Positions 1,012 through 43,100 of a stretch of 64,000 bases of DNA are shown here, piece by piece. A program made the translations under genes and the position numbers. The DNA comes from Parachlamydiales bacterium. GTDB lineage: Bacteria > Chlamydiota > Chlamydiia > Chlamydiales > JAJFMK01. Below the pieces are notes generated by a model. The model made no database searches, was not told the origin of the DNA, and was given only the letters and a program-made list of their open reading frames with translations. Where the stretch lies: positions 94,748-158,747 of the forward strand of contig CAVXVG010000005.1 in the NCBI GenBank assembly GCA_963765145.1, written 5' to 3'. Position 1 is the stretch's first letter; each line of letters starts with the position of its first letter.

Positions 1012-3343
1012 GGCGGAAGGGGGATGTGGTGTCATAGGGGTAGCCTGCGCGGACAAAGTGGAGGGGCGTCACCTTTTGCCAGGTCTTACGCAGATGAGAA
1101 ACCGGGGCAATGGAAAAGGTGGGGGGATAGCAGCTGCAGGGTTGTCTGCAGAGTTTTTTGGTGTCTCTCAAGAGGTTTTGGATGAATATTATCTTTTGGC
1201 CATCGCCTATCTTGATGTTGGTTGTTTAAACGAGGTGGAAAAGCAATTTATCTATTCTCAGTTCGATGTTGAGCATGTCTTTGTTTTTCCTCACATCGAC
1301 TCTTTAGATTTGCCTATTTTGCCGCCGGAAGTGGTGGTCTATTTTGTGAAACCAAAAGAGGGGACAGTCGACCCCGACACCTTTGTTTATAACAATTCTG
1401 CCAAACTTAACCAAACATTCTATTCTGCAACAGGAGAAAAGAGGGCGTTTGTTTTATCACATGGAAAAGATCTGCTGATTTTAAAACTGGTTGGTTTCGG
1501 TGACGATGCGATCCGTTATTACAAGTTAGAAGATTTTAAAGCCCATGTTTGGATTGGTCACCATCGCTATCCGACCAAAGGAAAGGTGTGGCATCCGGGA
1601 GGGGCCCACCCGTTCATCGGCATGAACGAGGCGCTTGTACACAACGGCGATTTTGCCAACTATTTTTCGATTTGCGAATACCTGGGCCAAAGGGGAATCT
1701 TACCCCAATTCTTAACCGATACCGAAGTGGCTGTATTGTTGTTTGACTTGTGGCATCGGGTTTATCAGTACCCTTTAGAGTATGTGATCGAGGCCCTTGC
1801 CCCTACGACAGAAAGGGATTTTGTCTTACTGCCCCAAGAAAAGCAGGAGGTCTATCAAGATATTCAGGTGACCCACATGCATAACTCTCCTGATGGTCCT
1901 TGGTTTTTTTTGATCGCCCAATCGGTGGCTAAGCACTATAGGCTGATTGGAATCACTGATACTAGCATGTTGAGGCCGCAAGTGTTTGCCCTGCAAAAAG
2001 GGGAGGCGCCTATTGGTTTGGCCGGTTCAGAAAAACAGGCCATCGATGCCACCCTTGCAAGTTTAGCCAAATCGGATAACCGCTTCTGGGGTACGGCAGA
2101 CTATTATTGGAATGCAAGAGGGGGTAGTCATCAGGATGGGGGCGCTTTTTCTTTTACTGTGCACGATGGGCAATTGGTCTGTACCGATAAGTTTGGGCGG
2201 CAAGTCCACGCAGAGCTTTTGCACCCTTCTATGCAAGGGGAAGAGAAAATGTCGATCGAAGATATTCCAGACCTTTCGATTGACGATCTTTACCTGTGGG
2301 CTAAAGGAAGGCTGTTAGAGTGGGATTATGGGCAGGCCCAAAGCTTAATGGAGAATATTTTAAAACTTGCCCCTCATACATCCATTGAGGTGTTAACCAA
2401 GCTTTTAGACGGCCATTACCCTCTAAAAAAAATGAGGAGAAGTTCTTTAAAGGACCTCATCAATGGCACGATAACAAAGTTTCTCTTCTCTGCCAAAATT
2501 GGCCTTGGAACAATGGTGTTAAATGGAGATCAGTTTGCTGCAGAAGGGGCTGATTCGTTGGCTTTAGAAATTGTGAAGCAACACAAAGAAGGGTTTGAAA
2601 ATCAGTTCATCTTCAATTGCAAAGGGCATCGGTTCATTGGGTCAGGTCTTGGCCCTGCCACTCAAGGGATGAGAATCGACGTCTACGGTTCTTCGGGAGA
2701 TTATTTAGCCTCCGGTATTGATGGGGCAGAAATACAAGTGCATGGAAGCGGTCAAGACCAGTTGGCCCAGATGATGAAAAGCGGCAAGCTCGTCGTTTAT
2801 GGCGGGGTTGGGCAGACGTTTATGTATGGTGCGAAGGGCGGCACAGCTTTTATCAGAGGATCCTGTGCAGGCAGACCCTTGATCAACGCAGTGGGTAAGC
2901 CGCGCGTTGTGATCAATGGAACCTGTTTAGACTATCTTGCTGAGTCGTTTATGGCTGGCAACCCTCTCAATGGCGGAGGTTTTGTCATACTGAATGCGAT
3001 CACTTTTGACGAGGAGGGAGCCGTTGTTGAAATGGCAACGCCCTATCCCGGAAGCAATTTGTTTTCGCTTGCTTCCGGCGGAGCTGTCTATGTGCGAGAC
3101 CCACAAGAGCTGATCACTAAAGATCAACTCAATGGGGGCCGTTTTGAAGAATTAAGCTCTGACGATTGGGACATTTTATTGCCTTATTTAGAAGAAAACG
3201 ATCGTTTATTCAATATTCCTGTCGAAAGATTGTTGATGTATCAAGGACTTAAGCTGCCGTTTGATCAAATTTACCGAAAAATCGTCCCCGCATCAGCAAG
3301 AGTCTTACAGGAAGAAGAGGCCTGGGTAAAAGCCAAAGATTAA
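1004..3343 (+). CDS. Glutamate synthase subunit: class II glutamine amidotransferase fused to a GXGXG domain
   Basis: MSEAEGG-CGV Ntn start, RGNGKG, GHHRYPT, AHPF, HNGD, TDTE; C-terminal GDYLASG/GQTFMYG/GGAVYV repeats; ATG overlaps the upstream gene end. Confidence 0.88.
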   Translation: MSEAEGGCGVIGVACADKVEGRHLLPGLTQMRNRGNGKGGGIAAAGLSAEFFGVSQEVLDEYYLLAIAYLDVGCLNEVEKQFIYSQFDVEHVFVFPHIDSLDLPILPPEVVVYFVKPKEGTVDPDTFVYNNSAKLNQTFYSATGEKRAFVLSHGKDLLILKLVGFGDDAIRYYKLEDFKAHVWIGHHRYPTKGKVWHPGGAHPFIGMNEALVHNGDFANYFSICEYLGQRGILPQFLTDTEVAVLLFDLWHRVYQYPLEYVIEALAPTTERDFVLLPQEKQEVYQDIQVTHMHNSPDGPWFFLIAQSVAKHYRLIGITDTSMLRPQVFALQKGEAPIGLAGSEKQAIDATLASLAKSDNRFWGTADYYWNARGGSHQDGGAFSFTVHDGQLVCTDKFGRQVHAELLHPSMQGEEKMSIEDIPDLSIDDLYLWAKGRLLEWDYGQAQSLMENILKLAPHTSIEVLTKLLDGHYPLKKMRRSSLKDLINGTITKFLFSAKIGLGTMVLNGDQFAAEGADSLALEIVKQHKEGFENQFIFNCKGHRFIGSGLGPATQGMRIDVYGSSGDYLASGIDGAEIQVHGSGQDQLAQMMKSGKLVVYGGVGQTFMYGAKGGTAFIRGSCAGRPLINAVGKPRVVINGTCLDYLAESFMAGNPLNGGGFVILNAITFDEEGAVVEMATPYPGSNLFSLASGGAVYVRDPQELITKDQLNGGRFEELSSDDWDILLPYLEENDRLFNIPVERLLMYQGLKLPFDQIYRKIVPASARVLQEEEAWVKAKD

Positions 3344-3429
3344 GTAGCTTATAGCCTCTTTACCAACCAAACAAGATCGTTTTTAAAACAAAGTAGCCTT
3401 TTACCTCAAAAGCGGATCGGCGATCTTTG

Positions 3430-40138: not shown

Positions 40139-43100
40139 TCAAACTCCATTTTCAGGAGCCGTTTGTTCGACCGGCAAAGAGATTTTGTCGTTCCATTTGT
40201 CCATGTAAAGGTAGATCACCGGGGTTAAATAGAGAGTGATCAACTGAGACAACAAAAGACCGCCAACAATCACATAACCCAAAGGCCGTCTGCCAACGGC
40301 GCCCGGGCCTGAGGCTAACATAATAGGCACGGCGCCCATGATGGCAGCAAAAGTGGTCATCATAATGGGACGAAACCGGACGATGCAGGCGTCAACAATG
40401 GCGTGAACCGGGTCTTCATGCTTGAGTCTTTTGTTTTCCAAAGCAAAATCGACCACTAAAATGCCGTTCTTTTTGACGATGCCAATTAACAAAATCAACC
40501 CAAGATAAGAATAAAGATTAAGCGGCATGTCAAATAGCCAAAGGGTTAAAAGACCGCCTAAAATGGCAGGAGGCAATGAAGATAAAATGGTCAGCGGGTG
40601 GATAAAACTTTCGTAAAGGATGCCCAAAATGATGTAGATGGCAATGATGGCAAAGATAAACAAGATACCTAAAGAGGAAACCGAGTCTCTAAACGTTTGA
40701 GCAGCTCCTTTGACAGAAGCAAAAACTCCTTTTGGGACAACTTCTTTTGCAGCTTTAGTGATTTTTTCTAACGTCGTACTTAACGCTGAGCCATGAGACA
40801 AATTGAAAGCAAAAGTCACGGCAGGCAACTGGTTAATGTGGTTGACCTGCGAAGGACCGATGCCAATTTCCCAATCGGCAACAGATGCCAACGGGATTAA
40901 GTTTGTGGTGTTGATGCTCGATAACCAGAGGCCCCGCAAGTCTTCCATGATCCTTTGTGTCGAAAGAGGAACCTCTAAAATCACATCGTATTGGTCAAAA
41001 GAGGTGTTGATCCTAGCGACACGGTTGCCGGAATAAGCGTACAACAAGGTTTGTTGTATTTCTTGAGCCGTGACGCCTAAAGCAGAGGCTTGTTCTCTTA
41101 AAATGTTAAACTTTACTTGCGGAGCATGGATTTGCAAGTCGCTATTCACCCCTTGTAAGTCGGGCATTTCTCTTAACTTAGCTAAAAGTTGCTCAGATCC
41201 TTTGTAGACGTCATGTGCATTCCACCCTTGTAAAGTATATTGGTAGGCGCCCCGGCTCACAGAGCCGATGTTGAGGTTGATGAGCGGCATGTTTTTTAAA
41301 AAGCTATTGATGCCCGGAATCTCCTTTAACATTTTCATAAAATGTAAAAGAGCATTTGGAACAGTCCTTTCGTTATATGAAGTCAAATTCATATAGAGAA
41401 TGCCCTGATTTGGTTGAGGCGAACCAAACACAGAAATCAAAGATTGCACGTTGGGGTCGTGCTTTACTCTATCGGCTGCATTCGACTGCAACTGAGCCAT
41501 TAAGAGGGGAGAGGTGCCCTCTTCTGCAACTGTATAGCCTTGGATGAAGCCCACATCATCATCGGGGAGAAAGTCCTTTGGAAGGACATAGAAAAGAAGT
41601 GCAGAGAGTAAAACGTTGAGCAGTCCGATAAACAGTATTGTTTTTCTGTAATTGATAAATTTTCGCAACGAATTGGCGTACAAATTATTAAAGTTTTCGT
41701 TTAGGTAATCGGAAAAATTTTTCTTTTTGCCCTCCTTTTTTAAGGATAACCAGCGGCTGCATAGCATGGGGGTGAGGGTTAACGAGATGACTCCGGAACA
41801 GATGATCACCACAATTAAGACGATAGAAAATTCGAAAAACAGCCGTCCAATAATTCCTGACATATAGACTAAAGGAATAAAAACTGCCGTTAACGACAAT
41901 GTCATCGAAACGATGGTAAATCCGATAAGGCGCGACCCTTCAAGCGCCGCTTTCCAACGACTCAACCCTTTTTCCATATGGTGGACAATGTTTTCCAAAA
42001 CGACAACGGCGTCGTCGACAATGAATCCTGTAGCTAAAATCAGGGCCAAGAGAGACAGGTTATCGATGGTAAAGCCAAAGATATCCATGAACCAAAAGGT
42101 CATCATGATCGACATCGGCATAGCAAGAGCAGGAATGAAAGTATCGGTGGGGCTGCCTAAGTAGGCGAAGATGACCAGCGTGACTAAGATGAAAGCAATG
42201 ATGAGTGTCTCTTCCACTTCACGGATGGAACTTTTGATGGTGAAGGCTTTGTCATACATCACCCGTAGGTCTATAGAGGAGGGAAGCTCTTCCATTAACA
42301 TCGGCAGTTGTTCGTGGATAAGGTCAGACAGTTTAACCGTATTGGCGCCTGGCTGTTTTAGCACAGCTAATACAACAGCCGGCGTGCCGTCCATATGATC
42401 ACTATCATAATACTTCACGCCAAAACGGATATTTTCAACGCTATCGATCGGTTTGCCAATATCTTCAAAACGGACCGGCATCCCGTCTTGCCACTTTAAG
42501 ATGATAGGGGCAAATTCGTCTGCTGTTTGGAGATTGGCCTCTGAATCGACAATCCAGGAACGTTGGTAGCCGTCGAGTTGCCCTGTCGGTAAGTCAGGAG
42601 TACTTCCCGCAATTTGCGAAGAGAGATAGTCCCAACTGAGGTTCATTGTTGAGGCAAGATAGGGGTCTATATCAATACGAGCGGCATAGGGCTGCCCATG
42701 GACGATCACCTGGGCTACACCTTCTACCATCGTTAGCCGTTGAGCGATGAGGGTAAAACCATATCGATAAATTTCGGCTAGATCAATAGAGTCGCTCATC
42801 ATGACAATGTAAATAACAGGAGTGTCTGAGGGGTTGACCTTTTGAAAGGTAGGGGGATAGGGGAGGTTAGGGGGTAAATAGGCTTGAGCTTGAGTGATAG
42901 CAGCTTGCACGTCTAGGGCTGCCCCATCCAAATTGCGGGTCAGGTCAAAATTCAATACAATCTGACTGTTGCCTAAAGTGTTTTGCGAGGCCACGCTTGT
43001 GAGCCCCGGAATTTGCATGAACTGCTTTTCAAGAGGCGTTGAAACGATGTTGGCAATGGTTTCAGGGCTTGTTCCCGGATAAACCGTTTTAACGGTGATA

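Follow-up and report, generated by a model that had tools for sequence, protein, structure and literature searches.

Displaced Copies of Gene 3' Ends behind Inserted Genes in the Parachlamydiales: Candidate Scars of Integrase-Free Gene Gain

Gene Organization at the Three Scars

The stretch of DNA analyzed here (the window) is 64,000 nt long and belongs to the genome of a Parachlamydiales bacterium (G000:C5:94748-158747; the genome, G000, has 2.68 Mb in 37 contigs). It contains three scars, each consisting of a host gene, an insert with one or more cargo genes, and then a short displaced copy of the host gene's 3' end (table 1). The hosts are a glutamate-synthase-like gene (scar 1), a cytochrome c gene (scar 2), and an RND permease gene (scar 3). 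A preliminary description made from the letters alone had recorded all three, and its observation was confirmed: the geometry is the same each time, every copy lies in host orientation, and the three repeats are mutually unrelated. Identities were 46/58, 62/63, and 65/92 nt, so the closest pair matches at 98% and not, as first stated, at 100%. The sites were compared with G001, the closest relative compared (same genus, a single 2.64 Mb contig), and with a third congener, L163.

At scar 1, the displaced copy carries a premature TGA. The F-box cargo, a putative effector, has one paralog in G000 and two weak fragments in G001. Because the site lies on a rearrangement breakpoint, no empty site could be seen there. 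The breakpoint belongs to a large inversion relative to G001 and falls at or near the scar (window 3343-6223); its ends, at about 511 kb and 764 kb, are placed about evenly on either side of the GC-skew maximum (653 kb).

At scar 2, the copy ends in an in-frame TAA that lies 45 nt before the stop of the host, and two sets of repetitive extragenic palindromic (REP) sequences with a RAYT gene between them follow. The site is empty in G001, where the cytochrome c stop overlaps the next start and both the RAYT gene and the 842-aa gene are missing, and it is empty in L163 too. The next gene is a short RF-1-domain gene, which we take to be ArfB-like. The host, labeled TsdA-like in the preliminary description, reads as 84 + 222 aa owing to one extra base near 28,414 relative to G001; this split is possibly an assembly error, because the G000 assembly has 60 split genes and that of G001 only 19. 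Matches to the 842-aa cargo protein came from 25 of 251 genomes of the order. Of its three paralogs in G000, two likewise abut gene-end copies at other loci. A paralog of the RAYT gene (78% identical, frameshifted) lies on contig C28 near 47 kb, and short repeat loci number about 700 in G000 and about 230 in G001.

At scar 3, the TAA of the copy abuts the GTG of the second RND gene, keeping that junction, and the tail of the copy matches the first RND gene, not the second. Copy and host differ by 15 silent and 8 replacement codon changes. The site is empty in L163, and G001 has a scar of its own there, with a PIN toxin-antitoxin cargo. The two events were likely independent, since the G001 copy resembles its own host tail. 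From its position after the Rhs gene, the 102-aa open reading frame (ORF) may encode an immunity protein. Within the insert, window 33980-34620 holds degraded frames; they have 72% matches at two positions of contig C29, and in G001 short stretches match them at 95%. The G001 ortholog of the Rhs gene is followed by an orphan module and a 383-bp repeat of 98.7% identity (G001:C1:959925-968678), which is the classical rhs tip-displacement pattern.

Table 1. Features of the three scars, by position in the window
Feature	Position	Strand	Remarks
Host gene 1, glutamate-synthase-like	971-3343	+	GATase_6 and GXGXG domains; 81% ortholog in G001
Duplicated segment, working 3' end of host 1	3308-3364	+
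Cargo 1, 728-aa F-box protein	3430-5616	-	Pfam PF12937
Displaced copy 1	5740-5797	+	46/58 nt (79%) vs host 3308-3364
Palindromic REPIN-like repeat, bystander	5946-6153	.
Short RF-1-domain gene	23783-24184	-	Overlaps cytochrome c stop at the empty site in relatives
REP doublet, RAYT gene (24390-24932, +, Y1_Tnp), REP	24272-24950	.	Absent at the site in G001 and L163
Displaced copy 2	24971-25033	-	62/63 nt (98%) vs host 27790-27852
Cargo 2, 842-aa protein, uncharacterised chlamydial family	25166-27694	+	No Pfam match; 4 members in G000
Host gene 2, cytochrome c	27745-28625	-	Duplicated segment 27790-27852; main frame 27745-28413
Second RND permease	28617-31715	-	Directly after first RND gene at L163 empty site
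Displaced copy 3	31718-31809	-	65/92 nt (71%) vs host 40141-40232
Cargo 3a, 585-aa orphan	31929-33686	+	No Pfam match; no homolog in G000 or G001; atlas search blank
REP doublet, RAYT-associated family, inside insert 3	33739-33838	.
Cargo 3b, 102-aa ORF after Rhs	34684-34992	-
Cargo 3c, 1,687-aa Rhs protein	35003-40066	-	86% ortholog at another locus in G001
Host gene 3, RND permease	40139-43231	-	Duplicated segment 40141-40232

Gene-End Copies in Two Genomes

G000 and G001 share 1,217 reciprocal best hits with a median amino-acid identity of 81.7%. Genes were longest-ORF calls. The last 150 nt, the first 150 nt, and the middle of each core gene were searched with BLASTN against non-coding DNA within 20 kb, and a second, independent scan used Smith-Waterman alignment on masked DNA. 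Curation by eye dropped one cross-match between RND paralogs and 10 host genes (paralog or Rhs-orphan remnants, REP tandems, cases internal to mobile elements, and doubtful ORFs), leaving 38 scars on 35 of the 45 hosts. The rates below are those of these two kin genomes.

The preliminary description had proposed such a scan, and an excess was found. Downstream same-strand copies of the 3' end were detected by BLASTN for 27 of 1,157 core genes in G000 and 18 of 1,159 in G001, while each of the other 11 geometries gave 0-6 genes. The Smith-Waterman scan returned 27/1,148 and 19/1,159, respectively, versus 0-6 in the controls. The scarred share is thus about 2% of the genes common to both species. 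Pooled, there were 45 downstream versus 9 upstream cases (p = 7e-7, a value overstated by the kinship of the genomes). Poor start calls were rejected as the cause of this 3' bias, because the 5' mirror geometry remained at only 5/1,154 and 3/1,156 after start correction; some of these cases were duplications spanning both gene ends of a junction. Replication-strand bias was rejected as well, leading-strand hosts amounting to 9/16 and 9/19 versus 603/1,159 core genes.

In the curated set, the copies start a median of 73 nt before the stop (range 29-274), host-copy identity ranges from 71% to 100%, and the inserts measure 0.35-16.8 kb (median about 2 kb). The scars are not eroded duplicates of whole genes: the youngest (identity at least 95%) are short from the outset (51-274 nt), and copy length does not track identity (rho 0.18, p = 0.28). 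In all three window scars the adjacent cargo gene (117-122 nt away) points back at its host, as the preliminary description had it, but this orientation is not fixed genome-wide, where 22 scars are convergent and 15 co-directional (37 scars with a cargo ORF). One G000 host and two G001 hosts carry two stacked copies each. At G000:C12:9173-22549, three cargo blocks and two displaced ends are stacked behind one host gene. The same geometry occurs at G000:C19:5405-8700 and C25:4200-8381, which are near-identical and represent either a duplication or assembly redundancy.

Association with REP sequences, suggested earlier from their proximity to two of the window scars, did not survive a statistical test in either genome. 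In G000 a repeat lay within 200 nt after the copy in 10 of 27 scars versus 305 of 1,148 core genes (p = 0.27), and in G001 in 1 of 19 scars versus 102 of 1,159 core genes; the test was run twice, the first filter having dropped scars whose stop overlaps a REP. These figures bear on the idea that a RAYT protein, as an HUH transposase nicking at REPs, mobilises or duplicates the flanking DNA. It is true that a RAYT gene with REPs abuts scar 2 and that two short duplications on contig C29 consist of a gene end plus a REP, but G001 has 18-19 scar hosts with only a weak RAYT match (26% identity). As a general route, REP/RAYT-driven insertion is largely refuted, and we regard it as very improbable.

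Comparison with Relatives and Origin of the Working End

Relatives were found to have empty sites or other cargo at the same junctions. At the 38 curated scars, the other genome was empty at 11 and differently filled at 18, while 6 were not syntenic and 3 lay on another contig; two hosts were scarred in both genomes (p = 0.027). In more distant chlamydiae, six 8-12 kb loci around the RF-1-domain gene had no direct repeats, though so few loci carry little weight. A G001 scar after the second RND gene has a copy that keeps the overlap with the next start, the working gene having a new, shorter tail; here, as at window scar 3, the former operon junction stays with the copy. G001 also has two mirror-image scars on converging RF-1-domain and holin-like genes; in G000, 154 nt separate these two genes. 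That some copies match at only 71-79%, and that the second assembly has lineage-specific scars of its own, makes an assembly artefact unlikely. Split genes are numerous in the G000 assembly, but the copies show silent-site divergence, their positions are strongly asymmetric, and such copies arose independently in the single-contig congener, so we give almost no credence to artefact or chance.

In a dead copy that arose by fresh duplication, changes would be expected at every codon position. The differences between host and copy, however, numbered 125, 97, and 285 at codon positions 1, 2, and 3. Among the 19 scars with at least 8 changed codons, a silent excess was found in 6 (p < 0.02 against a rough 40% neutral silent expectation), window scar 3 included, and the silent/replacement counts include 11/0, 34/7, 15/8, 12/5, 12/4, and 9/2. 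Since the differences are mostly silent in these 6 scars, a relative is the likely source of the working end. Two stacked copies at the 11/0 locus have alleles in common that the working end lacks. In the RF-1-domain gene of G001, the copy matches the L163 allele, while the working end matches the G000 allele. Taken together, the silent excess, the shared alleles at the 11/0 locus, and the split match to L163 and G000 suggest that some events, at least, brought together alleles from different lineages in which they had diverged under selection. Most scars have a host and a copy that agree with each other at more sites than either does with the ortholog of the other genome, so most events would postdate the species split.

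These counts weigh on the alternative that the duplication is local, that is, that non-homologous foreign DNA was captured at a break or at staggered nicks, 30-270 nt being copied and the downstream copy then decaying; Ku/LigD or a restriction enzyme could be involved. Such events would match published insertions with long target duplication, whose repeats often span start or stop sites in the cases given in the available text (PMC2853133). Several chlamydial scars are 98-100% identical, many show decay-like changes, Ku and an ATP-dependent ligase occur in the genus, and local capture would explain how cargo is first linked to a gene end. But it cannot yield silent/replacement differences of 11/0 or 34/7, it cannot produce a copy that matches one congener beside a working end that matches another, and Ku is cut to about 130 aa in G001, which nevertheless has scars of 99% identity. 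We therefore consider local duplication unlikely as the general explanation.

Enzymes and Cargo

Domain searches gave 8 tyrosine-recombinase matches in G000 and 5 in G001. None lies inside any of the 38 curated inserts, and the nearest integrase in G001 is 17 kb from one host. For the window, the earlier statement that it holds no integrase stands in that no tyrosine recombinase was found, but it has to be corrected for the RAYT transposase beside scar 2. No resolvase was found. The cargo comprises 88 ORFs, of which the domain scan took in 42 from G001 and 6 in the window; the other 40 are from G000, outside the window. The 42 G001 ORFs included one DDE fragment and no recombinase. By eye, no common motif was seen among the junctions listed.

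These results also concern decayed integrative elements. Prophage e14 integrates at icd and supplies a replacement 3' end. In the same way, a tyrosine integrase inserting at gene 3' ends with a replacement end, and later lost or acting in trans, would produce the observed geometry, including a diverged replacement end. Both genomes do have matches to such enzymes, and one row dropped in curation adjoins one (contig C29, near 92 kb). On the other hand, 35 unrelated hosts would need as many specificities, the median insert is only about 2 kb, and the youngest scars already lack integrases. This explanation, already weakened by the inserts without recombinases and the lack of a shared motif, appears quite improbable.

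The scanned cargo includes orphans, TPR, ankyrin, MORN, F-box, and Rhs proteins. It was first thought to be specific for effectors; however, toxin-antitoxin modules, a methyltransferase, an ABC exporter, and Schlafen/AAA proteins occur as well. No restriction-modification genes were found in the window cargo or among the 42 G001 ORFs. A phage origin was rejected, the 842-aa and 585-aa proteins being without close relatives in viral contigs in a search that reached close relatives only.

Of the uptake and recombination proteins, RecA, ComEC, DprA, and a ComM-type domain are present. DprA (G000:C27:123988) is present in the genus, and 14 of 37 other genomes of the order have it as well; the Chlamydiaceae are reported to lack it in the available part of one paper (PMC8936141). 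Ku and the ATP-dependent ligase form an operon in the genus (G000:C5:77921-81026, about 14 kb before the window; G001:C1:493034-495744). Ku is full length in G000 and in genome G002, internally deleted in G001, and found in 4 of 37 other genomes of the order. Dependence on Ku was rejected as not clearly needed, because of the 99% scars in G001. A reverse-transcriptase route was rejected too, with one such gene in G000, outside the window, and none found in G001; the G000 gene lies at C5:70121-70807 (456-aa frame), about 24 kb before the window.

Two further places in the window deserve mention. The gene at 16099-17607, presumably CTP-synthase-like, ends early at a G run relative to G001; together with the split cytochrome c gene and the other split genes of the assembly, it suggests homopolymer errors. 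At 18953-20933, where no scar was detected, a tandem pair of orphan paralogs (318 and 319 aa, 30% identical) stands in place of a different 486-aa gene in G001.

Proposed Mechanism

The preliminary description had inferred a repeatedly used route, anchored by homology and with one illegitimate end. The link to REPs, the fixed orientation, and the effector specificity have fallen away, but a repeated, integrase-independent route is supported by the genome-wide excess, the empty sites, the silent-site divergence, the inserts without integrases, and the lack of a shared junction motif. We think that the scars probably arose when a relative's DNA was inserted with a homologous anchor at one end and an illegitimate junction at the other. 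Under this reading, DNA of a related chlamydia would arrive with its own allele of a gene end and with cargo, perhaps entering by ComEC/DprA-type uptake. Homologous recombination, a step that RecA may carry out, would take place at the gene end; the other end would be joined illegitimately, and the old end would remain downstream as a non-coding copy. Repeated events would stack cargo and copies at one site. The donor, judging from the alleles, would be a relative.

Two sub-routes would give the same product. In the first, the fragment would be trimmed, circularised, and integrated by a single crossover; in the second, homology-facilitated illegitimate recombination (HFIR), the illegitimate join would fall inside the anchor. 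We lean toward the circle, and several routes may coexist. When Escherichia coli received DNA with homology at one end, 56 of 60 clones carried partial duplications of 109-950 bp, and in the accessible text of that study trimming, circularisation, and one crossover led to duplications, whereas true HFIR led to deletions (PMC3240628). The 3' bias and the short copies likely reflect survival: such events leave the host gene intact and spare the start of the next one, and repeats that are short or diverged are not easily lost by looping out.

Several points weigh against homology-anchored insertion. No silent excess was seen in 13 of the 19 scars, and plain local duplication fits those equally. 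The three-taxon site patterns are star-like, so that donor and resident are not polarised and no crossover was mapped. Mismatches are even along the copies (87 vs 97 of 391 third positions, p = 0.45); an identity gradient had been seen by eye and was not significant when tested. Matches to ComEA stayed below the cut-off, and in the G000 assembly the ComM-type gene is split. A donor molecule was not found. At 71-80% identity, integration would be inefficient, the model does not account for the first linkage of cargo to a donor gene end, and experimental HFIR, in the available results, usually deletes rather than duplicates (PMC3240628).

A broader proposal is much more tentative, and we would rate it as rather doubtful as a whole: that a specific processing step sets the short, 3'-biased duplication, that environmental chlamydiae with ComEC, DprA, and ComM exchange DNA inside shared hosts across species about 25% apart, and that one-ended capture at 3' ends is a main route by which effector-like families spread to new loci. 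The two 842-aa paralogs that abut gene-end copies and the mirror-image scars of G001 point in this direction.

Relation to Known Systems

Earlier papers already describe scars of this type, either as insertion with long target duplication or as displacement events at rhs and type VI secretion system (T6SS) loci. The former is said to have been described by Nobusato and colleagues in 2000. Literature searches, in which most subscription journals were not covered, returned no description of such scars in chlamydiae. For the papers cited here, our statements concern the parts of their text that are accessible.

Insertion with long target duplication was characterised by inserts below 20 kb, repeats above 30 bp, the absence of mobile-element genes, and an empty site in a relative, and it was frequent in competent species (Furuta, Abe and Kobayashi 2010, PMC2853133). 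The chlamydial scars resemble it in their repeats (58, 63, and 92 nt in the window), in inserts of 0.35-16.8 kb free of tyrosine recombinases, and in their empty sites (window sites 2 and 3; 11 of 38 genome-wide). They differ in that the published cases carry restriction-modification genes, which the scanned chlamydial cargo does not, and in that the published intraspecies repeats are near-identical, whereas the chlamydial ones go down to 71% with a silent-site bias. A further difference is that the chlamydial scars affect about 2% of core genes and are strongly biased toward the 3' end.

At rhs loci, C-termini are displaced (Jackson et al. 2009, PMC2935791), and T6SS effector-immunity modules are displaced sequentially (Kirchberger et al. 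2017, PMC5361080); a circular intermediate with a single crossover, or HFIR, was proposed as the route (PMC2935791, PMC5361080). As in our scars, the incoming allele takes over the gene end, the old end is pushed downstream, and events stack. The anchor there, however, is a toxin core and the payload a toxin tip, whereas here housekeeping genes are the anchors and unrelated whole genes the payload, and the window Rhs gene is cargo, not anchor. HFIR has one homologous end, one illegitimate junction, RecA, and no integrase (Amarir-Bouhram et al. 2011, PMC3240628), as the scars would have under the proposed mechanism, but it shows 3-10 bp of junction microhomology and a deletion in the recipient, whereas the chlamydial product is a duplication; the circle route yields partial duplications (109-950 bp, same study). 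Integrase-free hotspots likewise have variable genes between core genes, no mobility genes, and a link to competence, but the double crossover proposed for them leaves no scar, unlike the one-sided chlamydial events (Oliveira et al. 2017, PMC5635113). Even though the final geometry equals that of the e14 insertion, the latter needs an integrase and a fixed att site, neither of which was found here. We class the chlamydial scars as a variant, because they work like the published ones but differ in cargo or anchor.

Significance

The class of mechanism is already known, which limits the surprise. Nevertheless, in a lineage that is obligately intracellular and usually regarded as genetically isolated, the scars provide a footprint by which gene gain without an integrase can be counted, and each of them stores the old allele beside the new one. 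A simple scan makes it testable whether scar density in the order follows DprA (14/37) or Ku (4/37). Duplication has been given as the main cause of the expanded F-box and orphan families of environmental chlamydiae, as far as the accessible text goes (PMC4209131). Our results suggest that some members of these families arrive by recombination with relatives.

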